NCBI GenBank assembly: GCA_050747825.1
Contig: JBOGJG010000300.1
Location: 17,479-81,478 of the forward strand
Length of the DNA: 64,000 bases
Direction of reading: 5' to 3'
Origin: Acidobacteriota bacterium
Lineage (GTDB): Bacteria > Acidobacteriota > UBA6911 > RPQK01 > JBOGJG01
In this document: positions 765 through 61,830 of the stretch, in pieces
How positions within the stretch are numbered: position 1 is the stretch's first letter
Layout of the letters: every line of letters begins with the position of its first letter
The notes under the pieces: model-generated
Told to the model about the DNA's origin: nothing
What the model saw: only the letters and a program-made list of their open reading frames with translations
Database searches by the model: none
Program-made: the position numbers and the translations under genes

Positions 765-1036
765 GACCCAGGGACGTTCTCTCGTTTACCGGTTTTCTAG
801 AAACCCAAAAATATGGTAAACGAGTCGTTCATGGCCCCCTTGGGGGTACCTGGAAACGATGAAAATAATGATCGGAGCAGGACCTACAACAGCGGGCCCG
901 CTTCCTCACGGTCGCGGCTCGGTCGAGTGGCATCTGTGATCATATCCGAGCCGCGGCCGTGCACCCCAAGGGTACCAGGCGGGCCCTGATCAACGCCGCT
1001 CCGATTTATTTTCGAGAGAGTAGAGCGTCCCTGGAT
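765..1036. repeat. Nested palindromic (MITE/REP-like) element, family A
   Basis: Outer inverted repeat cccagggacgttctctcg / cgagagagtagagcgtccctgg. Middle IR ggcccccttgggggtacctgg / ccccaagggtaccaggcgggcc. Inner core ctcacggtcgcggctcgg...ccgagccgcggccgtg, which recurs at 8537, 10381, 43061, 50858 and 54632. Confidence 0.55.
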
Positions 1037-8514: not shown

Positions 8515-8536
8515 TGGTTTTTTACCTCAGCAGGGC

Positions 8537-8568
8537 CGCTCCCTCACAGTCGCGGCTCGATTCGGGCC
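8537..8568. repeat. Family A palindromic repeat, half copy
   Basis: gggccgctccctcacagtcgcggctcg in the 54-bp spacer between the PLP-enzyme gene and tctA. Confidence 0.5.
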
Positions 8569-10128: not shown

Positions 10129-10132
10129 CAAG

Positions 10133-11512
10133 TTACCACCCCAGCAGTCCCCTGGGCAGCGGCACCTGTAAAATATTGCCAAAGAGTTGATAAACCGCGG
10201 GAACGAGCAGGACAGTCACGACTGCGCTGACCCACAGCCGGCTTCCCAGCCTCCACAGCAGCAGAAAGGCGATGGCGCTGGAGGTCAAAATGAAACCAAG
10301 GTTTTCAGCAAAGAATACGTACAGGGCGACAGCGAGGATGATGTCGAGGAAGTGCATGAGAGCGGTGAAGCGCACGCGGAGCCGCTCTCTTACAGTCGCG
10401 GCCCGGATAAACGGAGCCGCGACCGTAAGAAAGCGACCCCGCATGAGGCCCATAATTATGAGCGCCGCCAGCAATAGACTAAGAATGACAAAGAGCAGCC
10501 GGGGGAAGTCCATAGGCTGAAAGCGGCTGGAGCGAACGGTGGAAAATTCTTCGCTGGTCAGCAGAGTCCCCAGTTCCTCATCGAAGCGCTTGAGCATCTC
10601 TTGAGATTCCGCCGGCGGACGCCAGGACAGATTGAAGCCCTGGGCCGCCATAAACTGGGGAAAAGTCCTACCGTTCACCCGGCTGGATCCGCTCATGATG
10701 CGCTGCATAACCTCAACCAGCCGATTGAAAATGGTAATGGGTGTCCCCTTGGGGACGCCTAAGCCGCGCCAACCTCCCATCACCCAGTCGATTCCCTGCT
10801 CCCGGAAAGTTGGAACATCCGGAAATAAGCTCAGGCGCGTATCTGACATGACCCCCAGGGAACGGACTACTCCCCCCGAGAGCAAAGTCGTGGCCTCAGG
10901 AAGGCTGCAGGAAACCACATCGATTCCTCCACTGGCGAGTTCCTGAAGCGAGGGGCCGGCGCCGCCCATGGGAATCCAACGGATGTCGCCCGGATCCAAT
11001 CCAGCCGCTTTCAGCGATCCTGCCAGAGCCAGATGCCAGATCCCGCCGGCGGCAGTTCCGGAAGCGGTCAAGGTTCCCGGATTGGCTTGAACATCTTCCA
11101 GCAGCGAAGGGAGATCATTCCAGCGGCTGTCGTCGGACCTGACAAAGATGGCCGCCGGATCTTCGTTGAAGACCATGACCGGCCTAAAGTTCTGCCATGA
11201 GATTTCCGTCAGGTCGCGCCAGTGAAGCATATTGAGTTCCACGGTCATCGTGGTCAGCGTGTAGCCGTCGGCCCTGGCCTGCGCTCCGCGGCTGTGCCCG
11301 GTAACGCCCGCTCCGCCCGTAGCGTTGATAACATTGACGGGCACACCCAGCTCCTGCTCCAGAAAAACCGCAATTTGCCTGGATACCGTATCGGTTCCGC
11401 CGCCCACGGCCCAGGGGCAAATCAACAGAATAGGTCGGCTGGGATACTCATCGTTGGTCTGGCATGCTCCGAGCAGCAGCAAGATAGCTGCCAGTGAGAT
11501 CGATAATCGCAT
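10133..11512 (-). CDS. TctC (Bug-family periplasmic binding protein) fused to a TctB-like 4-TM small subunit
   Basis: The N-terminal 320 aa are lipoprotein-like: LLLLGACQ then PILLICPWAVGGGTDTVSRQIA, a Bug/TctC motif. The C-terminal 140 aa form four hydrophobic helices, as in TctB. The frame is continuous over 459 aa. Confidence 0.7.
   Translation of the reverse strand: MRLSISLAAILLLLGACQTNDEYPSRPILLICPWAVGGGTDTVSRQIAVFLEQELGVPVNVINATGGAGVTGHSRGAQARADGYTLTTMTVELNMLHWRDLTEISWQNFRPVMVFNEDPAAIFVRSDDSRWNDLPSLLEDVQANPGTLTASGTAAGGIWHLALAGSLKAAGLDPGDIRWIPMGGAGPSLQELASGGIDVVSCSLPEATTLLSGGVVRSLGVMSDTRLSLFPDVPTFREQGIDWVMGGWRGLGVPKGTPITIFNRLVEVMQRIMSGSSRVNGRTFPQFMAAQGFNLSWRPPAESQEMLKRFDEELGTLLTSEEFSTVRSSRFQPMDFPRLLFVILSLLLAALIIMGLMRGRFLTVAAPFIRAATVRERLRVRFTALMHFLDIILAVALYVFFAENLGFILTSSAIAFLLLWRLGSRLWVSAVVTVLLVPAVYQLFGNILQVPLPRGLLGW
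10381..10430. repeat. Family A palindromic repeat inserted in-frame in the TctB-like part of tctCB
   Basis: cttacagtcgcggcccggataaacggagccgcgaccgtaag. It encodes ...[18 protein letters not shown].... Confidence 0.55.
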
Positions 11513-11582
11513 TGAGTTTCAAGTTCCAAGTTTCAAGTTCCAAGCTCCAAGTTCCAAGTTGGAACTTGAAACTTGGAACTCG
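11512..11582. repeat. 70-bp near-perfect palindrome built from tandem 7-bp units (caagttc / caagttt)
   Basis: gagtttcaagttccaagtttcaagttccaagctccaagttccaagttggaacttgaaacttggaactc. It lies between the ferritin stop and the tctCB start. Confidence 0.7.
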
Positions 11583-11587
11583 CAAAA

Positions 11588-41421: not shown

Positions 41422-42834
41422 ATGTGGTTGATTCTCGTTCTCTGGCTGACTAGTCCAATGCTGGCCTTTCAAAGCTCTGAATTGCCCCAAGTTCCCGATT
41501 TGCCTGTCTTGGGAAAGCAGTTGCCCGAGGCTGTCCGCCAGGAAGTGAACGAGTTGCACGCCAGGGCCCGCAAAAATCCGCAGGACGTGGATACAATCGG
41601 GCCCCTGGCGATGCTCATGCATGCTTACGAGCAATACCAGTTTGCAGAATTCTGTTACCGCCGCGCCCAGGAGCTGCAGCCGGATTCGTTTCAGTGGAGC
41701 TACTATCTGGGTCTCGTGCAGGCGAGACAGGGCGAGCATCAAGAGGCGGCTGATTCTCTGCGCAAGGCGCTCCTGCTGGATCCCAATTACGTTCCCGCCT
41801 GGCTGAAGCTCGTGGGATCCCTTCTCCAACTCGAACAGTTTGAAGAAGCGGCAACGATTTGCCAGGCGATCCTCCGCGAATATCCGCAGGCGGCGGTGGC
41901 CCATTACGGCCTGGGGCGCGTTAAAGCCCAACAGGGGAATCTCGAAGAAGCCGTCAGTCATTATCTGAAGGCCTGCGAGCTGCACCCGGGATTTGGCGCC
42001 TCCCATTACGCCCTGGGGCTCGCCTACCGCGACTTGGGCAATAACGCCAAGGCCCGGGAACACCTCTCTTTGTACCAGCAGAACAAGCTGGGCTGGCCTT
42101 CCGCGGAAGATCCTCTTTGGACCGCAGTCCAGCAGTTGAAGAGCGGCCCACTTCACCATCTGAAGCTGGCCATTGACCTGGCCAATGAGAATCGGCTTGA
42201 GCAATCCATCCGCGAACACCAGAAGGCGCTGGAGCTGGACCCCAACCTGCTGCAGGCCCATGTCAATCTCTCAAACCTTCAGGGCCGACTCGGAAACTGG
42301 AAAGAGGCCGAAAAGCATTACCAGGCGGCGGCAGCAATTAATCCCAATCTGCCGGACCTTCACTATAACTACGGAATCATTCTAGGCGCGCGGGAACGTC
42401 ACGCCGAAGCGGCCGAGGCTTTCCAGAAAGCGCTTGAGATCAATCCGTTCTACGCGGAGGCCCACAACAATCTGGGATCCATGCTGGCCCTGCAGGGCGA
42501 TCTGCACAAGGCGGCCCGCCATTATCGTCAGGCAATCGAAAACAATCCAAATTACCGGCTGGCCCGGTTCAATCTGGGCCGCACGCTGATTGCGCTGGGA
42601 GAGCACCAGGAGGCCATCGACCAGCTCCTGAAGATCCTGACTCCCGAGGATGAGGACACTCCGCGCTTCATGTTTGTCCTGGCGGCAGCTTATGCCCGAT
42701 CCGGGAACGTGGAGAAAGCGCTTTTCTACACGAGAGAAGCCAAGGAGCGAGCGGAAGCGCTGGGGCAGATGGAGCTGGCCGCTTCGGCTGAGGAAGGCCT
42801 GAAGCAACTGGAGCAGGCACGGCGGCCGCAATGA
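41422..42834 (+). CDS. TPR-repeat protein (secreted)
   Basis: Signal peptide plus multiple 34-residue W-LG-Y / A...Y..A repeats. Confidence 0.75.
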
Positions 42835-44630
42835 GACTTCGGGTACTGCTTCTTCTCGCCGTTTTGCCGGCTGTTTTCTCGCCAACCGGCTCGGTTGCCC
42901 ATGAAGTGCCGATTTTCAGAGAGGTGGCGGCTGAGGCCGGCCTGGAGTTTCAGCATTTCAACGGATCAAGCGGTGAGTTTTTTGTGCCCGAGATTATGGG
43001 TCCCGGGGTGGCGCTGTTGGATTACGACGGGGATGGGGATCTGGATGTCTATCTGACTCAGGGCCGCTCCCTCACGGTCGCGGCTCGGATGACGGAGCAG
43101 GAGCGGAAAACGGTGCAGGATCAAAAAACGGCGCTCGAATCCGAGCCGCGACTGTCAGCGAGCGGCCATCGGCTTTTTCGCAATCTGCTGAAGGAGGAAG
43201 GCCGGCTCCGATTCACGGATGTTACCGAAAAGGCCGGCCTGGGACACCAGGGTTACGGCATGGGGGCCGCCGTGGGCGACTACGACAACGACGGCGACCC
43301 AGATTTATACGTGACTAATTTCGGCAGCAATGTCTTGTATCGCAACAACGGAGACGGCACGTTTAGCGATGTCACCCGCGAAGCCGGCGTCGATGACCCG
43401 CGCTGGAGCACCAGCGCAGCTTTTTTAGATTACGACCGCGACGGAGACCTCGACCTTTTCGTCACCAACTACATCAATTTCAGCGTGGCCGCCAATCGGA
43501 CCTGTTACGACCCGGCCGGCGCGCGGGACTACTGCAACCCGTCCGTCTACAGTCCCGTGCCGGACCGACTCTTTCGCAATGAAGGCGCGGGACAGTTCTC
43601 GGAGGCCACCGAAGCGGCCGGGATTACGCTCGCCTATGGGCCCGGCCTGGGAGTCGTCTGCGCCGACTTCAACGCAGACGGATGGACCGACATCTACGTG
43701 GCCAATGACGGCACGGCCAATCTGCTCTGGATCAACCAGGGCAACGGTACCTTCGACGAGCAGGGACTGCTCTCGGGAAGCGCCTACAATGGAAACGGCA
43801 TGGCCGAGGGCAGCATGGGAGTAAGCGCCGGCGATTTCGACAATGACGGCGACGAAGACCTTTTCATGACTCATCTCAATCAGGAGAAGAACACGCTCTA
43901 TCTCAATCGCGGCCAGGGTGTTTTTCACGATGCCAGCCGGGAGTTCGACCTGGCGGCCCCCAGCTTTGCCTACACCGGCTTTGGGACGCAATGGTTCGAT
44001 TTCGACAGCGACGGCTATCTGGATCTTTTCGTGGCCAATGGCGCCGTCACCATCTTGGAGCAGTTGCGTGCACAGCCGTTTCCCTATCATCAAAAGAATC
44101 AGCTCTTCCGAAACCTGGAGGGAAAAGGCTTTCAAGACATCACGGCCGCCGCCGGACTCGCCCTGGAGTTATCTGAAGTCAGCCGCGGCGCCGCCTTTGG
44201 CGACATCGATAATGACGGCGATATCGATATCCTGGTCACAAACAACAACGGACCCGCGCGCCTGCTGCTCAATGAGTCAGCGCAGAAGCACTGGCTGAGC
44301 GTGCGTCTGGAAGGAACCCAGGATAATCGCTTGGGCATCGGCGCTCGCGTCGGCATTCTCCGAAGGTCAGTCAGCAGTCAGCGGTCAGCGGTCAGCGGTC
44401 AGCGGCCGGTCATCTGGCGGCGCGCCCACACCGACGGAAGTTACCTCAGCGCCGGCGATATCCGAGTTCACTTCGGCCTGGGGACGGATGCCGACCTGGA
44501 GGGAGTTGTTGTTCAGTGGCCCAACGGCCAATCTGAAGTGTGGACGGATGTTCAGCCCGATTCATTCCTGACCCTGAAGCAGGGCACGGGGGAAGCTTGG
44601 CCGATGGAGCAGGAGCAGGGGCGGCCATGA
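42831..44630 (+). CDS. CRTAC1-family protein (FG-GAP/VCBS repeats plus C-terminal ASPIC/UnbV domain)
   Basis: Repeated DYDGDGDLD / [12 protein letters not shown] / [11 protein letters not shown] motifs and a C-terminal UnbV_ASPIC-like domain. 4-bp overlap with the upstream TPR gene. Confidence 0.8.
43061..43170. repeat. Family A palindromic repeat (full, about 110 bp) inserted in-frame in a CRTAC1 gene
   Basis: gggccgctccctcacggtcgcggctcggatg....atccgagccgcgactgtcagcgagcggcc. It encodes [35 protein letters not shown], which is absent from the paralog at 44627. Confidence 0.65.
44363..44408. repeat. Tandem 7-bp repeat (gcggtca x3 perfect plus 2 imperfect) inside a CDS
   Basis: gtcagtcagcagtcagcggtcagcggtcagcggtcagcggcc. 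It encodes ...[14 protein letters not shown].... Confidence 0.7.
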
Positions 44631-46300
44631 GGGTTCTTTGGTTCTTTGGTGCCTTGGTTCTTTGGTGCCTTGGCGGTTTAATTCTCACGCTTGCGGCCCA
44701 GGAAGGAGTGGGTCCGGAACTGGCTCCGATCAAGTTTGATGACGTTGCGGCCGAAGCCGGTTTGGATTTCGTTCTGGAGAATAATCCCACGCCTGAAAAG
44801 CACATTATAGAAACCATGCCGGGGGGCTTGGCTGTTTTTGATTATAACGGTGACGGTCTCCCCGACATCTTCTTCACCAATGGCGCCGCGCTGCTCTCCC
44901 TCGAGAAAAGCACCCTCAGGCACTTTAACCGCCTGTATCGGAATGAAGGCGGGATGAAGTTCACCGACCTGACTGAAGCGGCCGGAGTGGCCGGCGCCGG
45001 TTATTCCATGGGCGCCGCCGCCGCCGATTATGACAACGACGGCCACGTCGATCTTTTCGTGGCAGGCGTCTTCCGCAATCTCCTCTATCGAAACAACGGA
45101 GACGGCACATTCGAGGAGCTCAGCGAGCAAGCTGGTATCAAGAGCGATCTTTGGGGCGTTGCCGGCGGCTGGTTCGATTACGACAGGGACGGCCTTTTAG
45201 ATCTTTTTGTCGTCAATTATGCGGAATGGTCCACCAGCTACCAACGCTTTTGCGGGGATCGCGATGAAGGCGTCCGCGTCTACTGCCATCCCAAATACTA
45301 TAACCCGGTACGAAACGCCCTTTACCGCAACCGCGGTGACGGCGGCTTTGAAGACGTGACTCAGAAAGCGGGCATCGCTCCCCACAAGGGAAGAGGCATG
45401 AGCGTGGCCTTTAACGATTACGACGGCGATGGGCTGATCGATGCTTTTGTCACCAATGACAACCTGCCCAATTTCCTATTCCGTAACCAGGGGGACGGCA
45501 GCTTTGAGGAAGTCGCCCTGGTCACGGGTGTGGCCCTGCGCGAGCACGGAAAGCCCGTGGCCAGTATGGGAGTCGATTTCCGGGATTATGACAACGACGG
45601 CAAGCCGGACATCAACGTCACGGCGCTGGCCGGAGAAACCTTCCCGCTCTTCCGCAACCAGGGCGAGTCTTTCTTTCAGGATGCCACGTATTCCAGCCGC
45701 CTGGCCCGGCTCACTATGGGATTCAGCGCCTGGGGCAACGGTTTCTTCGACTTCAACAACGATGGCTGGAAAGATTTATTTACCGCCAACTCGCACGTCA
45801 ATGACTTGATCGAGCTTTTTGAGGCCACCGAGTACAAGCAGCGCAACAGCGTTTTCGCCAACCTGGGGAATGGGACCTTTGAGGACGTCTCGGCTGGGGT
45901 GAGTGAGGAGTTCCAGACGGCCAGAGCCCATCGGGGCAGCGCCTTCGCCGATTTCAACGGCGACGGCAAGATCGATATCGTGGTCACTTCCCTAAGCGAG
46001 CCCACCGAATTGTGGCAGAACATCAGCCCCGAGTCCAACAACTGGGTCATCCTGGACCTGGAAGGTTCGCGCAGCAACCGGGACGGTATCGGCGCGCGGG
46101 TGCGCATCGGCAGTCAATACAACATCATGACCACGGCCGTCGGTTATGCCTCCTCCAGCTACAGCGGCGTGCACTTCGGGCTGGGGGAGACTGCGGTTAT
46201 TGATCGGATCGCGATTCGGTGGCCCAGCGGCACGGTCCAGGTTCTGGAAAATATCGCCGCCAATCAGGTCCTCCACATTCGCGAGCCGGAAAGTCGATGA
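44627..46300 (+). CDS. CRTAC1-family protein paralog (FG-GAP plus ASPIC/UnbV)
   Basis: ATGA overlap with the upstream paralog. Signal peptide, then the same repeat architecture. Confidence 0.8.
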   Translation: MRVLWFFGALVLWCLGGLILTLAAQEGVGPELAPIKFDDVAAEAGLDFVLENNPTPEKHIIETMPGGLAVFDYNGDGLPDIFFTNGAALLSLEKSTLRHFNRLYRNEGGMKFTDLTEAAGVAGAGYSMGAAAADYDNDGHVDLFVAGVFRNLLYRNNGDGTFEELSEQAGIKSDLWGVAGGWFDYDRDGLLDLFVVNYAEWSTSYQRFCGDRDEGVRVYCHPKYYNPVRNALYRNRGDGGFEDVTQKAGIAPHKGRGMSVAFNDYDGDGLIDAFVTNDNLPNFLFRNQGDGSFEEVALVTGVALREHGKPVASMGVDFRDYDNDGKPDINVTALAGETFPLFRNQGESFFQDATYSSRLARLTMGFSAWGNGFFDFNNDGWKDLFTANSHVNDLIELFEATEYKQRNSVFANLGNGTFEDVSAGVSEEFQTARAHRGSAFADFNGDGKIDIVVTSLSEPTELWQNISPESNNWVILDLEGSRSNRDGIGARVRIGSQYNIMTTAVGYASSSYSGVHFGLGETAVIDRIAIRWPSGTVQVLENIAANQVLHIREPESR

Positions 46301-47127: not shown

Positions 47128-47190
47128 GGCCACGGATGACACGGATTTCCCTGATTTGAATCTGCGTCAATCCGTGAAATCCGTGGCTCT
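47128..47190. repeat. Family B palindromic repeat
   Basis: gggccacggatgacacggattt...caatccgtgaaatccgtggctc. Confidence 0.55.
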
Positions 47191-47201
47191 CACTTACAAG
47201 A

Positions 47202-50200
47202 TCAGAAGGTCAGCTTGAATCCGAAGCGGATGTAGCGCTCGGGCGCGTTGTTGCTGGTGCTGCTGATCACGAAGAAGTTGCTGGAAGTCACGCTGCCGTT
47301 CGGATTATTGAAGTGGGGCGTATTGGTCAGGTTAAAAAACTCCGAGCGGAATTCCAGACCGACGGCCTCGGTGATTTCGAAGTGGCGAAACACCGAAAAG
47401 TCGAGATTGACCCAGGTGGGTCCGCGCAGAATGTTGCGACCCGAATTGCCGTAACAATCCAGATGAGTGCAGTCCTCACCCGGAACCCGGTTCACGGGAG
47501 CGAAGGCCTCACGATCGTAGTAGGGATTGCCGCGACCGATACCGCCCAGAGTCTTCACCTCCGCCTTGACCTGATCGGCGGTCTGGACGTTTTCCCGCGC
47601 GTTCAGCGGACCGCCGGAGCTTACCCTGAACGGTCTGTTCTCATTGACCGAGAAGATTCCGTTGACCTGCCAGCCCCGGATCAAGTGGTGGGCAAAGGAG
47701 TCGCCGCTCCGGCCGAAAGGCAGTTCATAGACGGTCGCCAGCTGCAGCATGTGCGGAATGTTGTAGCCGGCCTGCGCACGGTTTCGATCAAGGATGGCCG
47801 GATCGTTCCAGAGCAGCCCTCCCCAGCCGTCCTCGTCAGTCATGCTGATGGCTTTCGAATAGGTGTAGGCGCCTTTGACGAAGAGACCATCGGTAAACCG
47901 CCGGTTGATCGCCACCTGAAGGGAGTGATAGTTGGCGCTCAACCAGCCGTCCCAAAAGAGGATGTCATTGGTATAGGGAAAAAGCTGGCGGCCTTGATTT
48001 CCACCCCCGGGCAGGGAATAGTTCAGATTCCGGTCAGCCAGCTGGTGAACCGTCTGTGTGCCGACGTAGCCGGCCGAAATCACGAAGTCCTGAGGCAGCT
48101 TCCGCTCGTAGACCATGTTCCAGGACTGGATGTAGCCGCGATGGATCTTGTCGGGAGGCATGGTCCTTTGCGCCGCAAAGGTGGGCAAGGGGAGTCTTGT
48201 GCCCTGGTCGGTACTCGGCCCGATGAAAATCGGGATGCCCTCTTCCAGAGTTCTGAAGGGAAGAAAACTTTTATCCCCTTCAAAGTTCGCTACGAAGGTG
48301 AGGGGATAGAAACCCCGCAGCGGGCGCGCAAACGGCAAGGGGTCGAAGGTAATGCCGTACCCGCTGCGCAGGACGTCTTTGTCGGTCAAACGATAGGCGA
48401 ATCCGACTCGAGGCGCAAAAAGATTCTTGCTGATCTCGATGTCGTTGTCCAGGATCACTTCCAGGGTATTCACATCCATGAATTCCAGAGGACGGTCATC
48501 GCGCGAGACCAGTGGATAAAGCTCATAACGCAAGCCCAGATTCAGGGTCAGTTTGGGCGTGACCTGCCAGCGATCCCGCAAATACAAGGCATGCTGCCAC
48601 TCGTTGGCGGTCATGAGCTCCCACTGCAGGTTCTTGCCCATCTCTCGAGGCAGGCCCAGCATGAAAGCAGCCCAGGCATTCTGTTCGGTGGCGGCCACGT
48701 CGTCTCCGATCAGATCCGTCATACCGCCGCTAAAACGAATTCTCCCTCGCGGTCCGTTTCCTCCGATTTCCGGCTGCCAGTGGTCGAGCATGTGCTTGAC
48801 CAGGTCATAGCCCCATCTCACTTCATGGTTATCCTTGGTCCAACTGAAGCTGTGGGTAAACGTCAGGCTGTTCTCATCGCGGAAAATGGGGGTCCATCCA
48901 TCCAACTGGCCGAAACTGTTAAAGCCGGAGACGTCGAAGCGCGGGATGCCCCCGCAGCGGTTGAAGCCTTCCACGATACAGGCCTGCTCCTGTCCCGGAG
49001 CGGCATTGGCGCCCGGGAAGCCCAACACGTCTTGAGCAAAGTTTCCAAGATCGATATCGGCGCTCAAAACTTGCTGATCCATATCGGTGAAACCGAGATT
49101 CCCGTCGATCAAAAAGGTGGGCGACAGGGTCAGGGTGTGCCCGATGCCCCAAACCCTGACATCGGTCAAGCCCACACCGTCACCGCCGCCTCCGATAGCT
49201 CCGCCGCCGCCTTGCTTCCCAAACCTGGAATTCTTGGCTACCTCTGCATCCAGCCAGCTAAACTTCCCCCAAATGCTATGCTGCTGGCTACGGTACCAGT
49301 CCATTTTGATATCGATATTGTGACGGTCCATGGCTTCCGTACCCGAAACCCCGTAGTTGTCATCGATGCCGGACAAATTGGGAAGGGGGAGAAAGCCGGC
49401 CATTTTGACGGCAGGCGGACTGAGGCGGTCCTCGGGGATGATATTGTTGGGGAAGGGCTCTCGGCCGGTCGCGTCCGGATTGCCGGTTAGCGGGTCATAA
49501 ATAATCGTCTCATCGAAGCCGTTGGGGTTGCCGGGCAGAAAGGCGCTAAAGTCGCCCCGGCGTTGATCCGCAGTCGCAACATCCAACAGGTCCGTCTTGG
49601 GCAGGCGCTGAAAAGTTCCTTCCCAGCCCCCGAAGAAGAACAGCTTGTCCTTCATAATGGGGCCGCCCACCGTGAAACCATCGATGTTGCGGTTGCCGCC
49701 TGGCTTATCCGCTTTGCCGTCGCCATCCGTATCCGCCAGATTGAAGAAATCCCGGGCGTTGAGGGCGCTGTTTTCATGATAGCCGAAGGCGGAGCCGTGA
49801 AGCTCATTCGTCCCCGACTTGGTCACGACGGTAACGGCCGCACCACCGGCGAAACCCGTTTCGGCATCAAAGTTATTGGTCGAGATGTTGACGACCTCGA
49901 TGGTCTCAGCAGGAGGCACGTAAGCCGTATGGTGAGGTAGCCAGATGTTCACGCTCTGGGCGCCGTCGATGCGCGTGTTGTTGTTGTTGCGGGCCGTCCC
50001 GTTGATGTTGTGGGTCAGCGCCCGTCCCGGCGTATCAGTGATGGCGTTCTGAAACCTTCCCGGCGTGGCGCCCGGGACCAGGTTGATCAGAGCCTGATAG
50101 TTGCGATATTGATTCAGCGGCAGGTCGCTGATCTCCTTGCTTTCCAACTGAACGTGAACGTCACTGGTTTCGGTCTGCAGGACGGTGGCCGCTCCGGAAA

Positions 50201-50570
50201 CGGTGATCACTTCCGTCAACTGGCCCACTTCAAGGACGACGTTTCTGCGCGTGATGCTTCCAACCGTGACCGCCACGTTGTCGTCCACAAACTCCTTAAA
50301 ACCGGGCAGCGTCACTTTCAGAGTATAAGTACCTTTAGGAATATTGCGGATGAGGTACACACCGGCCTCATCGGTGATGCCCGTCTGCGCGAAATTCGTG
50401 GCGGGATTGACCACGGAAACGTCGGCGCCCGGCACGGCGGCGCCGCTGGAATCGGACACATTGCCCGTCAGTGAGCCGTAGAGGACTTGAGCTTGCGCTC
50501 TGTCCTGAATCATGAAAGTGCACAGCCCGATCAGTCCGATCAGGCAACCAAGTCGCCTCAGGTTTAGCAT
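47202..50570 (-). CDS. TonB-dependent-receptor-like outer-membrane protein with N-terminal carboxypeptidase-regulatory-like domain (Acidobacteria-type, 1122 aa)
   Basis: Signal peptide then AQVLYGSLTGNVSDSSGAAVPGADVSVVNPATNFAQTGITDEAGVYLIRNIPKGTYTLKVTLPGFKEF (CarboxypepD_reg). A plug-like segment, a long beta-barrel and a C-terminal ...YIRFGFKLTF. Confidence 0.8.
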   Translation of the reverse strand: MLNLRRLGCLIGLIGLCTFMIQDRAQAQVLYGSLTGNVSDSSGAAVPGADVSVVNPATNFAQTGITDEAGVYLIRNIPKGTYTLKVTLPGFKEFVDDNVAVTVGSITRRNVVLEVGQLTEVITVSGAATVLQTETSDVHVQLESKEISDLPLNQYRNYQALINLVPGATPGRFQNAITDTPGRALTHNINGTARNNNNTRIDGAQSVNIWLPHHTAYVPPAETIEVVNISTNNFDAETGFAGGAAVTVVTKSGTNELHGSAFGYHENSALNARDFFNLADTDGDGKADKPGGNRNIDGFTVGGPIMKDKLFFFGGWEGTFQRLPKTDLLDVATADQRRGDFSAFLPGNPNGFDETIIYDPLTGNPDATGREPFPNNIIPEDRLSPPAVKMAGFLPLPNLSGIDDNYGVSGTEAMDRHNIDIKMDWYRSQQHSIWGKFSWLDAEVAKNSRFGKQGGGGAIGGGGDGVGLTDVRVWGIGHTLTLSPTFLIDGNLGFTDMDQQVLSADIDLGNFAQDVLGFPGANAAPGQEQACIVEGFNRCGGIPRFDVSGFNSFGQLDGWTPIFRDENSLTFTHSFSWTKDNHEVRWGYDLVKHMLDHWQPEIGGNGPRGRIRFSGGMTDLIGDDVAATEQNAWAAFMLGLPREMGKNLQWELMTANEWQHALYLRDRWQVTPKLTLNLGLRYELYPLVSRDDRPLEFMDVNTLEVILDNDIEISKNLFAPRVGFAYRLTDKDVLRSGYGITFDPLPFARPLRGFYPLTFVANFEGDKSFLPFRTLEEGIPIFIGPSTDQGTRLPLPTFAAQRTMPPDKIHRGYIQSWNMVYERKLPQDFVISAGYVGTQTVHQLADRNLNYSLPGGGNQGRQLFPYTNDILFWDGWLSANYHSLQVAINRRFTDGLFVKGAYTYSKAISMTDEDGWGGLLWNDPAILDRNRAQAGYNIPHMLQLATVYELPFGRSGDSFAHHLIRGWQVNGIFSVNENRPFRVSSGGPLNARENVQTADQVKAEVKTLGGIGRGNPYYDREAFAPVNRVPGEDCTHLDCYGNSGRNILRGPTWVNLDFSVFRHFEITEAVGLEFRSEFFNLTNTPHFNNPNGSVTSSNFFVISSTSNNAPERYIRFGFKLTF

Positions 50571-50982: not shown

Positions 50983-53900
50983 TCAGAAGGTCAGTTTGAA
51001 TCCGAAGCGGATGTAGCGCTCCAGCGCGTTGTTACTGGTGCTGGTGATGTCGAAGAAGTTGTTGGAGTTTACGCTGCTGGTCGGATTGCTGAAGTGCGGC
51101 GTATTGGTCAGATTAAAGAATTCGGAGCGGAACTCCAGCCCCACATCCTCGGTGAGTTGGAAGCTGCGGAAGAGGGAGAAATCCAGGTTAACCCAAGTGG
51201 GGCCGCGCAGGATGTTGCGCCCGGCGTTTCCGAAGCAGTCCAGACCACTGCAGCTCGTACCCGGCACGCGAGTCACGGGCGCAAACGCTGTCCTGTCGTA
51301 GTACGGGTTGCCCCGGCCAACTCCGCCCAGGGTCGCCACTTCATCCTTCACCTGATCCGCAGTCTGAGTGTTGTTCCTGGAGTTATGCGGACCGCCGGAA
51401 GTCACCGTAAAAGGCTCGTTTTCGTTCACCGAGAAAATTCCGTTGACCTGCCAGCCCCGGAGTACGTGGTGGCCAATTGAGTCACCGCCGCGGCCGAAAG
51501 GCAGCTCATAAACGGTGGCCAACTGCAGCATGTGCGGCCGGTTGTAACCGGCTTGAGCGCGGTTGCGTTGAATCTGGGCAGGATCGTTCCAGCCCAGGCC
51601 GGCCCACCCGTCGTCATCGGTCATGTTGAGTGCCCTTTGATAAGTATAGGCTCCTTTCACAAAGAGACCGCCCGTAAAGCGGCGGTTGACCGCCACCTGC
51701 AGGGAGTGGTAGTTGGAGCTCAGAAAACCGTTCCAGAACAGGATGTTGTTGGTGAACGGGAAAAGCTGCCGTCCGGTGTTTCCACCACCGGCCGGCGACC
51801 AGTTCAGATTGTGGTCGGCCAACTGGTGGACGGTCTGGGTTCCGACATAACCGGCGGAGACCACAAAGTCCTGGGGAAGCTTGCGCTCATAGACGAGGTT
51901 CCAGGACTGGATGTAACCCCGGTCAATCCGGTCCGGGGGCATTGTCCTCTGCTGAACGAAGGTCGGCAGGGGGATGCGAGTCCCCGGGCTGGTGCCGGGC
52001 CCCGTGAAGATAGGAATCCCCTCTTCAAGAGACCTGAAAGGAATGGAGGAGTTGTCTGCGGAGAAGTTACCCGCGATGGTCAGCGGGTAAAAACCGCGCA
52101 AAGGCCGCGCAAACGGGAGCGGGTCGAAGGTGATTCCGTAGCCGCTGCGAAGAACGTCATCGTCAGTCAAGCGGTAAGCGAAGCCGACGCGCGGAGCGAA
52201 CAGACTCTTGCTGATCTTGATATCGTTGTCCAGCACCAGCTCCATGGTGTTCAGATCCATGAACTCCATGGGCCGATCATCCCGCGTGACCAGCGGATAA
52301 AGCTCATAACGCAGGCCCAGGTTCAGTGTCAGCTTGGGGGTCACCTGCCAGCGGTCGCGCAGATAAAAAGCGTGTTGCCACTCGTTGGCGGTCATCAGCT
52401 CCCACTGCAGGCTCTTGCCTATACTATTGGGGAGTCCGAGCATGAAGGAAGCCCAGGAATTCTGGTTCGTGGTAGCCGCTCCTCCGATCAGAGCCGTCAT
52501 ACCCCCACTAAAGCGAAACCTGCCGCGGGGGCCGTCTCCAATCTCGGGCTGCCAGTGATCGAGCATGTGCTTGACCAGATCATAACCCCATCTCACTTCG
52601 TGATTGCTCCTGGTCCAGCTAAAGCTGTGGGTGAAGGTGAGACTGTTTTCATCCCGGAATAACGGGCTCCAGCCGTCCAACTGCCCAAAAGTGGTAAAAC
52701 CGGACACATCAAAGCGGGGTACGCCGCCACAGCGGTTGATCCCGTCCACAATACAGGCCTGTTCCTGGCCTGGTCCGGCGTTGGCGCCGGGGAACCCCAG
52801 GACATCCTGGCCAAAGTTGCCCAGCTCGATGTCGGCCGTCAGCACTTCCTGGTCCATGTCAGTGAAGCCCAAGCTTCCATCCACCAGAAAGGTGGGAGAC
52901 AACGTCAACGTGTGGCCGATACCCCACACCCGGACGTCAGTCAGCCCTCGACCATCACCGCCGCCGCCGATGGCGCCGCCGCCGCCCTGCACCCCGAAAC
53001 GAGGACTTTTCGCAACCTCAGCATCCATCCAACTGAACTTGCCCCAGATGCTGTGCTGCTCATTCCGGTACCAGTCGAGCTTGGCGTCGATATTGTGGCG
53101 GTCCATGGCTTCCGTGCCCGAAACGCCATAGTTGGAAGTGACTCCGCCTAAATTGGGAAGAGGCAGAAAACCTGCCATCCTCACCGCGGCCGGACTCAGG
53201 CGATCTTGCGGGATGACATTGTTGGCGAAAGGCTCCCTGTCCGTCCCGTCGGGATTGCCGGTGGTGGGATCATAAATAATGGTCTCACGATTGCCCGCCG
53301 CATTGCCCGGCAGGAAGGCGCTGAAGTCGCCGGCCCGCTGATCGGCGCTGGCTACCGTCAAAGTATCCGTCTTGGGCAGGCGCTGGAAAGTGCCTTCCCA
53401 GCCGCCGAAGAAGAACAACTTATCCTGCCTGATCGGACCGCCGATGGTAAAGCCGTCGATGTTGCGGTTGCCGCCCGGCTTGTCGGCCTTGCCGTCCCCG
53501 TCCGTGTCGGCATGATTGAAGAAATCTCGGGCATTGAGGGCGCTGTTCTCATGGTAGCCGAAGGCCGAACCATGAAGCTCGTTGGTTCCTGACTTGGTCA
53601 CCACCGTGATCGCCGCGCCGCCTGCAAAGCCCGTCTCGGCGTCGAAGTTGTTAGTCGAAATGTTGACCACTTCGATCGTCTCCGCCGGAGGCACATAAGC
53701 CGTGTGGTGGGGCAACCAGATGTTGACGCTCTGGGCGCCGTCGATGCGCGTATTGTTGTTATTGCGAGCGGTGCCGTTGACATTAGTCGATAGTGCGCGA
53801 CCCGGCGTGTCCGTGATCGCGTTCTGGAACTCGGCAGGAGTGGCGCCCGGAACCAGGTTAAGCAGCGCTTGATAGTTTCGATACTGGTTCAAAGGCAGGT

Positions 53901-54348
53901 CGCTGATCTCCTTGCTTTCCAACTGAACGTGAACGTCACTGGTTTCGGTCTGCAGGACGGTGGCCGCTCCGGAAACGGTGATCGCCTCGGTCAACTCACC
54001 CACCTCCAGTCGAACGTCCCGGCGGGTGATGCTTCCAACCGTCACCGCCACGTTGTCGTCCACAAATTCTTTAAAACCGGGCAGCGTCACTTTCAGCGTA
54101 TAAGTACCTTTAGGAATATTGCGGATAAGGTACACACCGGTTTCATCAGTCACACCGGCCTGAGTGAAGTTAGTGGCTGGATTGACCACCGATACATCAG
54201 CGCCCGGCACTGCAGCGCCGCTGGCGTCTGCCACGTTACCTGTCAAAGACCCGTACAGGACCTGCGCCTGAGTGTCAGTGGCCGTAACGGCCACTGACAT
54301 AATCAAAGCCAGGCCAAAGATACGCCAGCTCTTGAATAAACTTGTCAT
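50983..54348 (-). CDS. TonB-dependent-receptor-like OMP paralog (CarboxypepD_reg plus barrel)
   Basis: About 85% aa identity to the upstream paralog across the full length. The start is taken at MTSLFKSWRIFGLALIMSVAVTA (signal peptide). Confidence 0.8.
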   Translation of the reverse strand: MTSLFKSWRIFGLALIMSVAVTATDTQAQVLYGSLTGNVADASGAAVPGADVSVVNPATNFTQAGVTDETGVYLIRNIPKGTYTLKVTLPGFKEFVDDNVAVTVGSITRRDVRLEVGELTEAITVSGAATVLQTETSDVHVQLESKEISDLPLNQYRNYQALLNLVPGATPAEFQNAITDTPGRALSTNVNGTARNNNNTRIDGAQSVNIWLPHHTAYVPPAETIEVVNISTNNFDAETGFAGGAAITVVTKSGTNELHGSAFGYHENSALNARDFFNHADTDGDGKADKPGGNRNIDGFTIGGPIRQDKLFFFGGWEGTFQRLPKTDTLTVASADQRAGDFSAFLPGNAAGNRETIIYDPTTGNPDGTDREPFANNVIPQDRLSPAAVRMAGFLPLPNLGGVTSNYGVSGTEAMDRHNIDAKLDWYRNEQHSIWGKFSWMDAEVAKSPRFGVQGGGGAIGGGGDGRGLTDVRVWGIGHTLTLSPTFLVDGSLGFTDMDQEVLTADIELGNFGQDVLGFPGANAGPGQEQACIVDGINRCGGVPRFDVSGFTTFGQLDGWSPLFRDENSLTFTHSFSWTRSNHEVRWGYDLVKHMLDHWQPEIGDGPRGRFRFSGGMTALIGGAATTNQNSWASFMLGLPNSIGKSLQWELMTANEWQHAFYLRDRWQVTPKLTLNLGLRYELYPLVTRDDRPMEFMDLNTMELVLDNDIKISKSLFAPRVGFAYRLTDDDVLRSGYGITFDPLPFARPLRGFYPLTIAGNFSADNSSIPFRSLEEGIPIFTGPGTSPGTRIPLPTFVQQRTMPPDRIDRGYIQSWNLVYERKLPQDFVVSAGYVGTQTVHQLADHNLNWSPAGGGNTGRQLFPFTNNILFWNGFLSSNYHSLQVAVNRRFTGGLFVKGAYTYQRALNMTDDDGWAGLGWNDPAQIQRNRAQAGYNRPHMLQLATVYELPFGRGGDSIGHHVLRGWQVNGIFSVNENEPFTVTSGGPHNSRNNTQTADQVKDEVATLGGVGRGNPYYDRTAFAPVTRVPGTSCSGLDCFGNAGRNILRGPTWVNLDFSLFRSFQLTEDVGLEFRSEFFNLTNTPHFSNPTSSVNSNNFFDITSTSNNALERYIRFGFKLTF

Positions 54349-54631
54349 AAACTCCCTCCTCGACAATTCAAGTTGTTCAAATCGAATTACAAAATAAGCC
54401 GCGGGTGGTAAGGCACCCGGAGACGATATATGCAATCTCAGTACCTATTCTTTGGAGAGCTCGCTGAGTCGCGCTGGTTTAACGGTAAAGCTCCAAGAGT
54501 GCCGCCGTTTTTCGCCTGAGTCTCCCGATGAGCCAAGGGACGTGCGCTTGTCCAAAATTCCGAACTTTGCGCTTCTGGAATACAGGTTTTTGAACTTGAA
54601 TAAGAGACTAATAGGTGAACGGCGATGACCC

Positions 54632-54685
54632 GGGGGCGCGCTCCTTTATAGTCGCGGCTCTGTTTGGATGGGGCCCATCCTCTCC
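54632..54685. repeat. Family A repeat, half copy
   Basis: gggggcgcgctcctttatagtcgcggctctgtttggatggggccc. Confidence 0.45.
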
Positions 54686-54701: not shown

Positions 54702-56177
54702 ATGCTGGCAGCGATACTCATTTTTACCTGGCTAATGCCGCAGTCGGACCAACTGGCAGAGCAGTCCCGGCGCGCCCAAGAAGCCCTTGAATCGGGGGAC
54801 TTTCAGGAAGCGGTTACACTCTATCAAGAATTGGTCAAAGCGCTGCCCGGCGTGCCGGGACTCAAGATGAATCTGGGAATCTCTCTTCATATGGCGGGCG
54901 ACTTTCACAGCGCCATCCAGGAGCTCCAGGCGGCAGTCGGCGCCGATGAAAAGCTCGTCTCGGGATGGCTTTTTCTGGGCTCCAGCTACCTGCAGGCCGG
55001 TCAGCCCCGCAAGGCTATCCAACCGCTCGAGAGATACCTGAAAGAGAAGCCGGGAGAACCGCAGGTCCACAAGATTCTGGCTGAGGCCTTCCTTTCATTG
55101 GAAGATTACGAAAAGGCGATTGAGCACTTTGGCAAGCTGTCGGATCTGGACGCTTCCGATGCCGGGGCCTGGTACGGCTTGGGAAAAAGTTATGAGGCGC
55201 TGGCCGCCCGAGCCTTTGGCAGCCTTCAAGCCCAAGCGCCCGAATCGGCCTACTGGTTTGCTCTGGTGGCCGACTCGCGCGTTGCCCAGCAGCAGTACCG
55301 GAGCGCCTTTTATTTTTACAGGAAAGCGCTGGAAAACAATCCCAGCATGCGCGGCATCCATGTGGCTCTGAGCCGCATCTACCGTCAGACGGATCACCCC
55401 GAGTGGGCGGCCGAGGAGGAAAAGAAGGAACTCGAACTCGGTCTGCCTGATTGCCAGTCCGAAAAATTGGTTTGTGATTTTCTGCAGGGTCGATTACAGC
55501 AAGTGGCGGAGGCGGCCGGTCAGAGCAACTCTCCGGAGGCTTACTACTGGCAAGCCCAGGCTTACAATCAGCTCGCCATGCAATCCTTCTCCCGGCTGGC
55601 TCAGTACCCTTCCTCCTTTGAGATGCACCGGTTCAAGGCTGAGATTCACGAAAACCAGGGGGAGTACCTGGAGGCTGCCCATGAATGGAGAAAGGCTCTG
55701 GAAGCCTCTCCCCGAAACCCAATTGCCCTACAGGGCCTGGCGGTTTCGCTTTATCTTCATCGTGATTACGAGGCGGCACAGCCTCTGATTGATGAGCTGC
55801 TGAAATCAGCCCCCAACTCAGCTCAATTGAATTACCTGGCCGGAGGAATTCTGCTCAATCAGCAGAAAGCGCAGGAAGCGGTTCCCGTCCTGGAGAAGGC
55901 CTTAAAAACCAATCCCGACCTTCTGGCCGCGCATCAGGCCCTAGGCCGCGCCTATTTGAGCCTGCAAAAATCGGATGCGGCCATTCCCCATCTTGAAGCC
56001 GCTCTGAAAGGCGACAGCGACGGCAGCTTGCACTATCAACTGGCACGCGCCTACCAGAATAGCGGCCGTGCCGAGCACGCCCGCCAAATCCTGGAGAAAT
56101 ACCAGCAGATTCAGCAGAAAGCCGAGGCTGAACAGGCGCAGTTGGAAGAAGAAGCACAGATCACACCTCCTGACTAA
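54702..56177 (+). CDS. TPR-repeat protein (secreted)
   Basis: Multiple TPR units (...A...Y.LG.SY...G....A...). Confidence 0.7.
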   Translation: MLAAILIFTWLMPQSDQLAEQSRRAQEALESGDFQEAVTLYQELVKALPGVPGLKMNLGISLHMAGDFHSAIQELQAAVGADEKLVSGWLFLGSSYLQAGQPRKAIQPLERYLKEKPGEPQVHKILAEAFLSLEDYEKAIEHFGKLSDLDASDAGAWYGLGKSYEALAARAFGSLQAQAPESAYWFALVADSRVAQQQYRSAFYFYRKALENNPSMRGIHVALSRIYRQTDHPEWAAEEEKKELELGLPDCQSEKLVCDFLQGRLQQVAEAAGQSNSPEAYYWQAQAYNQLAMQSFSRLAQYPSSFEMHRFKAEIHENQGEYLEAAHEWRKALEASPRNPIALQGLAVSLYLHRDYEAAQPLIDELLKSAPNSAQLNYLAGGILLNQQKAQEAVPVLEKALKTNPDLLAAHQALGRAYLSLQKSDAAIPHLEAALKGDSDGSLHYQLARAYQNSGRAEHARQILEKYQQIQQKAEAEQAQLEEEAQITPPD

Positions 56178-56222
56178 GATGTCGGGTGGGATTTTTTCCC
56201 GGCGTTTCCACTAAGCTGAGCC

Positions 56223-56250
56223 CCGGATTACACGGATTACGCGGATTTAA
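56223..56250. repeat. Family B repeat, partial
   Basis: ccggattacacggattacgcggattt. Confidence 0.4.
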
Positions 56251-57050: not shown

Positions 57051-58043
57051 TTGACAATACACCGACGTATATTGAGCCACGGATTTCACGGATTGATGCT
57101 GCTTATTCTATGTCATCCGTGTAATCCGTGGCCCACTCAGGTCTCAGGTCAGCCCTCACAACAGCCATTTCCCATTTCGGTGGACGTTGATCTGACGCTC
57201 CTCTATGTCTCCGTAGAGGATGACGAGGGCGATTTCGTAGGCGGCTTGTCCCGCCAGGACTTCCAGGTTTTTGAAGATGGCCGGTCTTGCGAGATCAAGA
57301 TTTTTAGAGAAGGAGACGTTCCCCTTACCTGGGGTCTGGTGGTGGATAAAAGCGCCAGCATGATGAATAAGTACCAGGAAGTTTTTGGCGCCTCACTCCA
57401 GTTCGCTCAAACTCGCAAGCCAGAAGACCAGTTTTTTGTCGTGAGTTTCAATGACCGTGTTTACATGAGTCTCTCGGAGCAGGATCCCTTCTTGAGGAAT
57501 ATGGTGGACCTGAGACGGGCTCTTATTGAAGTCTCAATGACAGGACAAACGGCTCTTTATGACGCGCTGGTTACGGCTCTCGAGCAGCTTGAACGGGGCA
57601 AACACCTCAAGAAAGCTCTGATTGCCATCAGCGACGGCGGTGATAATGCCAGCCGCCACAGCTTCGATCAGGTGCTGGAGATGGCCCGAGCCTCCGAAGC
57701 GATCATCTACACGGTGGGAATTTACAATTCGGCTAACCGGGACCGCAACCCGGATATTTTGAAGCAGTTGGCCGGCGAGACCGGAGGATTTGCCGCCTTT
57801 CCAGGCCGCACAAGCCGCCTGGAAGAAGTGGCCCAGGAAATTGCCCAGAACCTGCGCAGACAGTACGTGATCGGCTATGTCCCGCTGCCGGCCCCCGACC
57901 AGATGAAATACCGGAAGGTCAGAGTAGAAGTCGAGGATGAGGGTCTTACCGTGAGAACGCGCAGCGGCTACTACTTGGCCACGGATTACACGGTTGACAC
58001 GGAACTACCAGCCTGTGGTAAAAGTCCTGAGGGGTCGTGTTAG
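57051..58043 (+). CDS. VWA-domain protein (Acidobacteria VWA family usually paired with GWxTD proteins)
   Basis: ...FPISVDVDLTLLYVSVEDDEGDFVGGLSRQDFQVFEDG..C.I..F.... LVVDKSASM is the MIDAS DxSxS motif. The first 28 codons are encoded by a family B repeat. Confidence 0.7.
   Translation: MTIHRRILSHGFHGLMLLILCHPCNPWPTQVSGQPSQQPFPISVDVDLTLLYVSVEDDEGDFVGGLSRQDFQVFEDGRSCEIKIFREGDVPLTWGLVVDKSASMMNKYQEVFGASLQFAQTRKPEDQFFVVSFNDRVYMSLSEQDPFLRNMVDLRRALIEVSMTGQTALYDALVTALEQLERGKHLKKALIAISDGGDNASRHSFDQVLEMARASEAIIYTVGIYNSANRDRNPDILKQLAGETGGFAAFPGRTSRLEEVAQEIAQNLRRQYVIGYVPLPAPDQMKYRKVRVEVEDEGLTVRTRSGYYLATDYTVDTELPACGKSPEGSC
57074..57133. repeat. Family B palindromic repeat overlapping the 5' end of the VWA gene
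   Basis: gagccacggatttcacggattgatgctgcttattctatgtcatccgtgtaatccgtggccc. Confidence 0.55.
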
Positions 58044-58095
58044 ACGACTCCACTTCCCTGGCGCACGGCCCCTCAGGACTTTTACCACAGGCTGC
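58007..58095. terminator. 28-bp-arm perfect palindrome between the convergent VWA and GWxTD genes
   Basis: cctgtggtaaaagtcctgaggggtcgtg ... cacggcccctcaggacttttaccacagg. The left arm encodes the VWA C-terminus ...PACGKSPEGSC. Confidence 0.55.
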
Positions 58096-58102
58096 TAAAG
58101 AA

Positions 58103-61769: not shown

Positions 61770-61830
61770 AGCCACGGATTCCACGGATTGGCACAGATTC
61801 AATCAGAGAAATCCGCGCAATCCGTGGCTG
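61770..61830. repeat. Family B palindromic repeat
   Basis: cagccacggattccacggattggcacagattcaatcagagaaatccgcgcaatccgtggctg. Confidence 0.55.

Follow-up and report, generated by a model that had tools for sequence, protein, structure and literature searches.

An In-Frame REP-Like Palindrome at the Site of a Conserved Loop in an Acidobacterial CRTAC1-Family Gene

Genes and Features at the Locus

A stretch of 64,000 nucleotides from the genome of an Acidobacteriota bacterium (GCA_050747825.1, contig JBOGJG010000300.1, positions 17,479 to 81,478; hereafter the window, to which all coordinates refer) was analyzed around a gene for a CRTAC1-family protein that contains an in-frame copy of a dispersed palindromic repeat. 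The gene (hereafter the host gene) lies between a TPR gene and a second CRTAC1-family gene, and the features at the locus are listed below.

42831..44630, +, host gene encoding a secreted CRTAC1/ASPIC-UnbV family beta-propeller protein of 599 aa (Pfam, NCBI, and AlphaFold2)
43062..43090, +, left arm of the palindrome (inverted repeat I7), read as 10 residues, in which 43064-43088 match the family consensus CCGCTCCCTCACGGTCGCGGCTCGG at 25 of 25 positions
43091..43138, +, spacer (hairpin loop) of 48 nt, encoding 16 residues
43139..43167, +, right arm of the palindrome (inverted repeat I7), read as SEPRLSASG, with 3 mismatches to the consensus
44370..44405, +, second repeat-coded in-frame insert, a heptanucleotide array (GTCAGCG) x 5.1 encoding ~11 aa (Tandem Repeats Finder)
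41422..42834, +, upstream TPR gene (Pfam TPR families), the stop of which overlaps the start of the host gene (ATGA)
44627..46300, +, adjacent CRTAC1-family paralog without the repeat, 557 aa and 40% identical to the host protein, the start of which overlaps the stop of the host gene (ATGA)

The host protein is 100% identical to the NCBI entry MGH9340539.1, “MAG: CRTAC1 family protein [Acidobacteriota bacterium]” (MAG, metagenome-assembled genome). It contains FG-GAP_3 in six stretches (4e-52) and UnbV_ASPIC (1e-12) according to Pfam, which is the CRTAC1/ASPIC-UnbV domain architecture, and the top PDB match of its AlphaFold2 model (predicted local distance difference test, pLDDT, 85; predicted template modeling score, pTM, 0.88) is murine CRTAC1 (9etn_A, E = 2.7e-30, template modeling score 0.66-0.72). 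The three genes TPR-CRTAC1a-CRTAC1b are joined by ATGA overlaps of 4 nt each and, judged by this arrangement, are predicted to be translationally coupled. The gene of the CRTAC1-family homolog P0002 is preceded by a 466-aa gene that overlaps it by 4 nt and is 47% identical to the TPR gene of the window, and this shared context supports the orthology of the comparison set used below. The signal-peptide coding region of the paralog contains a perfect 16-nt tandem repeat (TTGGTTCTTTGGTGCC x 2.2 at 44632-44673).

Anatomy of the Palindrome

The palindrome extends from 43062 to 43167 and lies in frame within open reading frame (ORF) 42831-44630 (+), which is open throughout. An inverted repeat search identified two arms of 29 nt each (43062-43090 and 43139-43167) that are 90% complementary and have 48 nt between them. 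The left arm was compared with a 25-nt half-site consensus (CCGCTCCCTCACGGTCGCGGCTCGG) that was built from other genomes. The predicted RNA fold of the element has a free energy of −64.1 kcal/mol compared with −47.8 ± 4.0 kcal/mol for dinucleotide shuffles (z = −4.1), and none of 200 shuffles was as stable. The arms, the fold, and the family matches confirm the original prediction that a dispersed palindromic repeat is present in frame inside a CRTAC1-family gene. The size proposed for the element, 110 bp and in effect a multiple of three, has to be corrected to 106 nt, which is not a multiple of three.

The spacer contains, at 43092-43131, 2.2 tandem copies of an 18-nt unit of six codons (81% matches, consensus ACGGAGCAGGAGCGGAAA, Tandem Repeats Finder) that read ACGGAGCAGGAGCGGAAA, ACGGTGCAGGATCAAAAA, and ACGG. 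The duplication of 18 nt corresponds to six codons and leaves the frame unchanged, and the residues encoded by the units coincide with a helix predicted in the structure model (see below). Without one or two units the spacer would measure 30 or 12 nt, the two most common spacer lengths of the repeat family. A 22-mer from the spacer (ACGGAGCAGGAGCGGAAAACGG) gave no exact match among JGI metagenome contigs.

The right arm reads CTG TCA GCG where a perfect complement of the left arm would give CCG TGA GGG, and the stop codon is absent. The missing TGA fits the survival of open copies only and is weak evidence for it. The TGA-avoiding mismatch was considered as proof of selection, an argument that is weakened by the presence of the same C-C stem mismatch in 11 of 123 copies of the family. 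The heptamer GTCAGCG, the unit of the array at 44370-44405, also occurs once in the mutated right arm (43150-43156, CTGTCAGCGAGCGG), perhaps by coincidence.

No target-site duplication is present at the ends of the element, where the flanks (...CTGACTCAG followed by GGCCGC... on the left, and ...GCGGCC followed by ATCGGCTTT... on the right) share no direct repeat. A search of Rfam at gathering thresholds found no match anywhere in the window, with only a chance microRNA match (E = 3) overlapping the element, and no terminator or promoter was called for the hairpin on the + strand.

Comparison with Orthologs and the Adjacent Paralog

The closest homologs outside this population are 58-66% identical to the host protein. 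The alignment of the host protein with its paralog and orthologs shows that the insert segment is present in none of the 119 orthologs and is also missing from the adjacent paralog, so that the absence from the paralog that had been predicted extends to the whole comparison set. In the orthologs this position, flanked by ...VYLLQG and NRLFRN, is occupied by a conserved loop with the approximate consensus xxLDxxKKLSEAKFPPPxGWKPG, which is 24 aa long in 105 of the 119 orthologs (range 15-29) and has an FxP/PPP motif in 96. This native loop is gone from the host protein and 33 repeat-coded residues stand between G78 and G112 instead, a net gain of 11 aa and not the plain addition of about 35 aa that was originally proposed. 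G78 and G112 are each encoded by GGC, and these two codons share bases with the GGCC ends of the palindrome. A gain of 106 nt would by itself shift the frame, which was kept only through the simultaneous loss of native sequence. The paralog, in which the loop differs and is 15 aa long, is a weak comparator at 40% identity and the orthologs are decisive.

A native-sequence origin of the segment is ruled out by its absence from all 119 orthologs together with the match of its arm to a dispersed repeat. HMMER places the insert residues QERKTVQD on the profile residues dekkklkd; an origin of the spacer as a remnant of the native loop was examined on this basis and found to be unsupported: among 500 shuffles in each case, 49 for the whole insert and 50 for the spacer-coded part scored as well as the actual sequence.

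Structure models of the host protein and of an ortholog were compared at the position of the insert. The native loop of P0002 is modeled with confidence (pLDDT 89-94, residues 91-120). The insert (aa 79-111) has a pLDDT of 55-68, forms a low-confidence helix at residues 89-103, and maps between strands 72-75 and 114-118. Outside of its two inserts, the propeller of the host protein is modeled with a confidence equal to that of P0002. In these models the repeat would occupy an inter-strand loop of blade 1 and displace an ordered, conserved element, and the 33 residues probably represent a flexible or helical surface excursion. The predicted insertion into a surface-exposed loop is thus supported as far as the position between two strands of blade 1 is concerned, but the element that was displaced is an ordered loop.

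Agreement between Two Assemblies

An assembler might have spliced the repeat into the gene, since both available sources are MAGs and multicopy palindromes are a classic cause of misjoins. The second assembly (GCA_975374895.1, contig CDIKIH010000012.1, L120) is 99.88% identical to the window over 21.8 kb and has no difference within the element, and its protein (variant P0121, 99% identical) carries the identical insert. Two assemblies that differ at 26 sites over this distance thus agree exactly over the palindrome. This agreement makes an artefact unlikely, as does the orthologous gene itself, which runs on through both flanks without a change of register or frame; a misjoin is also unlikely to yield an intact hairpin with 18 nt duplicated inside it and a frame that remains open, and we regard this explanation as hardly credible.

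Of the 26 differences between the assemblies, 18 lie within 50 bp (49386-49434) in a TonB-dependent receptor gene (47202-50570, −), for which a tandem paralog of 80% identity is present (50983-54435, −). The clustering at 49386-49434 resembles a tract of gene conversion or a patch that varies between strains.

Copies and Distribution of the Repeat Family

The 13-nt core of the palindrome (ACNGTCGCGGCYC) occurs nine times in the window compared with an expectation of 0.92, and the 25-nt half-site occurs 6-7 times compared with 0 in shuffles. In total, the window contains seven half-sites at five loci in 64 kb, and two of the five loci are translated. The four loci outside the host gene are:

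893..966, two-armed copy with a spacer of 23 nt and a degenerate right arm, outside any convincing gene
8534..8559, solo half-site between gene 7354-8514 (−) and the TctA gene 8569-10182 (−)
10381..10442, −, copy with both arms and a spacer of ~5 nt, in frame in the TctB part of ORF 10133-11512 (−)
54637..54661, degenerate solo half-site upstream of TPR gene 54702-56177

A scan of species-representative genomes located the core palindrome at no fewer than 119 loci (at least 119) in other genomes. Among the loci listed, nearly all belong to Bryobacterales, Bryobacteraceae, Solibacter, and other Acidobacteriota MAGs, and the remaining ones to a few Legionella isolates, gammaproteobacterial MAGs, and one Anaerolineales MAG. 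The family is a hairpin with a stem of ~26-30 bp, consisting of CCGCTCCCTnnCGGTCGCGGCTCGG, a variable loop, and then the complement. Spacers of 3-30 nt were found across genomes, 30 nt being the upper spacer limit of this search, and some spacer classes recur within one genome. These counts identify the palindrome as a member of a dispersed repeat family and not as a chance palindrome. A literature search with the core sequence turned up nothing but a paper on human rRNA that is unrelated.

The stem extends 14-18 bp past the fixed core in 123 distinct copies, and most of its first 13 positions are paired in 82-96% of the copies. Compensatory changes are found at position 3 (A-T in 68 copies, G-C in 34), and position 4 displays all four Watson-Crick pair types yet is paired in only 63%. 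Judged by these compensatory changes, the hairpin stem appears to be under selection. The consensus over the 123 copies (TCCCGGCAACCGCTCCCTCACG followed by GTCGCGGCTCGG...) has no GTAG, and CGTC is present in some stem variants only.

None of the 124 perfect-core copies elsewhere lies in a believable gene, as judged by ORF inspection only in a survey that is crude and in which perfect cores favor young copies. Fourteen candidate ORFs that span a copy were rejected, being spurious Arg-rich or antisense frames or having the repeat upstream of the real start.

The stability of the hairpin (−64 kcal/mol, z = −4.1) and the compensatory changes across the family could also indicate that the palindrome was kept for a role at the RNA or DNA level in the operon, as a block to exonucleases, as a site of processing, or by pausing translation near the start of a secreted protein, with the peptide as a by-product. 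REPs (repetitive extragenic palindromes) downstream of genes are thought to act as RNA elements (PMC3733652), and the three genes at the locus are predicted to be coupled. Recognition by a transposase explains the selection for pairing equally, though, and the hairpin neither matches Rfam nor is called as a terminator on the + strand. The intragenic position is exceptional (0 of 124 elsewhere) and shows no positional pattern, and the orthologous operons work without a hairpin. A role of this kind is very improbable.

A Transposase Linked to the Repeat Family

In L021 (region 751-1646), a proteobacterial MAG, an ORF of 179 aa has a hairpin on either side, and the two hairpins are identical. The ORF encodes a Y1/HUH transposase (PF01797, 34 bits with a cutoff of 23) with an HVHLV motif. 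In L038 (3967-4600), a Bryobacterales MAG, a homolog that is 50% identical to it is encoded at a distance of 60 nt from a hairpin, and a further half-site is located downstream of this homolog. The corresponding transposase family has 1845 members under the JGI name “REP element-mobilizing transposase RayT” and includes proteins of Legionella waltersii and L. shakespearei, two species that also carry the hairpin. The arrangement of a transposase flanked by hairpins is the REPtron described for REP/RAYT systems (RAYT, REP-associated tyrosine transposase; PMC3733652).

The same GC-rich palindrome, including the outer arms, is present in Acidobacteriota, L. waltersii, L. shakespearei, gammaproteobacterial MAGs (GC 36-45%), and an Anaerolineales MAG (L021, L038, L065, L084). 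It is accompanied by a conserved Y1 “RayT-like” transposase of ~178-179 aa with 50% identity between the proteobacterial and the Bryobacterales copy, which suggests that repeat and transposase were transferred together between phyla.

Comparison with Known Systems

Translated intragenic palindromes are already known. REPs and REP dimers that encode 20-30 or more residues occur within genes of several REP-rich species (PMC3733652), and the Rickettsia palindromic elements (RPEs) are inserted into the reading frames of dozens of genes, where it has been argued that they occupy protein surfaces and interfere with neither fold nor function (PMC3733652 and PMC10969869, citing Ogata et al. 2000, 2002). 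For R. conorii, a count of 44 genes is given.

The family described here resembles REPs, REPINs (hairpins of two inverted REPs), and their RAYTs in that a short, multicopy palindrome is mostly extragenic and its two inverted arms form a long hairpin, in that a Y1/HUH gene is flanked by repeats in some genomes, and in that occasional copies lie wholly within ORFs. It differs from classical REPs by the absence of the GTAG/CGTC tag and by the fact that a single half-site is not a hairpin, the stem being one duplex of 26-30 bp with a loop of 3-48 nt. The associated transposase scores below the curated RayT cutoff, and the system is nearest to the TIR-associated (terminal inverted repeat-associated) tyrosine transposase systems of Di Nocera et al. 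(2013), which were noted in Acidobacteria (PMC3733652). Unlike intragenic REPs, the repeat in the host gene replaced a native loop and was not merely added. By copy number, extragenic bias, and selected hairpin, the family qualifies as REP/REPIN-like, and in other genomes it may do so by a flanked Y1 gene; by its lack of the tag it does not.

By analogy with RPEs, a palindrome is found in frame in a recognizable gene, is absent from the orthologs, and would be translated at the modeled surface; the models are also consistent with a surface-loop insert that leaves the fold intact, as argued for RPEs. In contrast, RPEs are ~100-150 bp long and are inserted in frame frequently in an AT-rich, obligate intracellular alphaproteobacterium, whereas the host described here is a GC-rich, free-living acidobacterium in which intragenic copies are exceptional.

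A likeness also exists to MITEs (miniature transposable elements with inverted repeats) that make in-frame fusions (ERIC, BOX, and Anabaena MITEs; PMC10969869), which are small, non-autonomous repeats with inverted ends that add a peptide. Unlike in MITEs, a target-site duplication is absent at 43062/43167, an insertion sequence whose ends would make it the parent is not known, and the Y1 transposase associated with the family uses hairpins and not terminal inverted repeats with duplications. Of the two labels given in the original prediction, “REP or MITE”, the first is therefore retained in the form “REP-like”, with a RayT-like transposase linked to the family, and the second, for which a target-site duplication is missing, is dropped.

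Loop Replacement, Possible Decay, and the Fate of the Host Gene

It is likely that a REP-like hairpin replaced a conserved propeller loop in the host protein and that it is translated and tolerated. The hairpin family would spread in trans via a RayT-type Y1/HUH enzyme that acts on the single-stranded hairpin, and one copy would have landed in the first blade of the secreted CRTAC1-family gene. The native loop of 22-24 aa between VYLxQG and NRLFRN would have been lost in the same event or later. The reading frame would have stayed open, and the spacer would then have grown by an in-frame tandem duplication of 18 nt. The order of these events and the neutrality of the insert are inferred. The protein probably still folds, and the most likely functional status of the repeat is that of a tolerated passenger.

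Several observations weigh against this interpretation. An open frame through a single GC-rich element of 106 nt is not improbable by chance and hence is no proof of selection. No close relative with an empty site was found in the databases, the next-best homolog being 66% identical. The spacer might be element-borne, a remnant of the native loop, or a degenerate arm: it holds the heptamer GGAGCGG, which is also present in the outer arm, and displays a weak, non-significant likeness to the native loop (M..ERK..). On the side of the transposase, the L021 protein reaches 29 bits on the NCBI RayT model, which has a cutoff of 80, the tag of classical REPs (GTAG or CGTC) is missing from the family, and a motif scan combined with tblastn identified no RayT-like gene within the 64-kb window. 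Because of this last result, mobilization by a RayT-like enzyme is inferred for this particular genome. Finally, the gene contains a second odd insert, and the differences between the two assemblies within it are two non-synonymous and zero synonymous changes (E430Q and L443P), features that would also fit relaxed constraint.

The second insert is the heptanucleotide array, which lies inside the UnbV_ASPIC domain and is modeled with a pLDDT below 50 at aa 516-520. Neither the paralog nor any of the 40 orthologs displayed (P0002-P0041) has the residues that it encodes, and its copy number is equal in both assemblies. Adding or removing a single 7-nt unit would change the reading frame, and the array could act as a slipped-strand switch.

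The second insert and the two non-synonymous differences are also what would be expected if the gene is decaying, that is, if the loop was destroyed, the protein is impaired or non-functional, and the ORF is open because the event is recent or because translation is needed for the coupled paralog, from which the function would come. In the orthologs the lost loop is conserved and modeled with confidence, an intact paralog follows directly with a 4-nt overlap, and the left arm that still matches the consensus at 25 of 25 positions suggests a young copy. A stop codon or frameshift would probably affect the downstream paralog too, because the genes are joined by ATGA overlaps. The 599-aa ORF is nevertheless complete and has kept all the columns that do not vary among 52 family members, every DxDxDG motif included, and the model outside the inserts is as confident as that of the ortholog. 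The in-frame duplication of 18 nt and the absent TGA of the right arm fit continued maintenance of the frame, and two substitutions are too few for an estimate of selection. Decay is considered unlikely, with counts that are too small for a decision between a tolerated and a decaying state.

Returning to the replacement of the loop by a tolerated repeat, the proposal that such insertions are tolerated and represent repeat-driven protein diversification is likely to hold in its first part, in that the data fit a tolerated passenger equally well, and a usefulness of the new loop is not supported. A more far-reaching version, in which REP-type hairpins and tandem repeats are an adaptive loop-swapping mechanism for secreted and membrane proteins, with the charged helix and the frameshift-prone heptamer array providing selectable or switchable surface variants, is speculative and improbable.

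New in this case are the host phylum, the replacement of a loop, a spacer that grew in frame, and the connection, across phyla, of the palindrome with a RayT-like transposase. Rickettsia is the best-known source of translated palindromic repeats, which are extended here to a free-living, GC-rich acidobacterium, and where the known cases add residues, a conserved structural loop is replaced in this one. The palindrome family itself is widespread (Bryobacterales, other Acidobacteriota, and even Legionella), apparently undescribed, and tied to a RayT-like transposase. For annotation, a 16-residue peptide and PLPxGRGSV in acidobacterial proteins mark repeat DNA and not protein homology.

A Second In-Frame Copy and Other Repeats in the Window

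The second copy that was predicted to be in frame across a TctB-like region (10381) was identified at 10381-10442 in ORF 10133-11512 (−). The 62-nt copy encodes 20 residues in the loop between the transmembrane segments TM1 and TM2 of the TctB part. The ORF encodes a protein of 459 aa with TctC at aa 43-274 and TctB at aa 327-453 (Pfam). A homolog (P0123) has both Pfam domains, and P0123 and P0126, both from metagenomes, align across the TctC-TctB junction; from these alignments, the fusion appears to be native to the subfamily and not made by the repeat. The palindrome-coded peptide is present in none of the six TctB-region homologs found, in which the length of this loop varies widely. The stretch at 11515-11585, directly upstream of this ORF, contains a tandem array of 14 nt (AGTTTCAAGTTCCA-like) together with an inverted partner and may represent an operator or a repeat of the promoter region.

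A second, unrelated repeat family with CACGGATT/AATCCGTG motifs in direct and inverted orientation is found at intergenic positions (47129-47189, 56220-56245, 57074-57133, 57977-58012, and 61770-61802), and a separate, near-perfect hairpin of 34 nt is located at 58006-58097.

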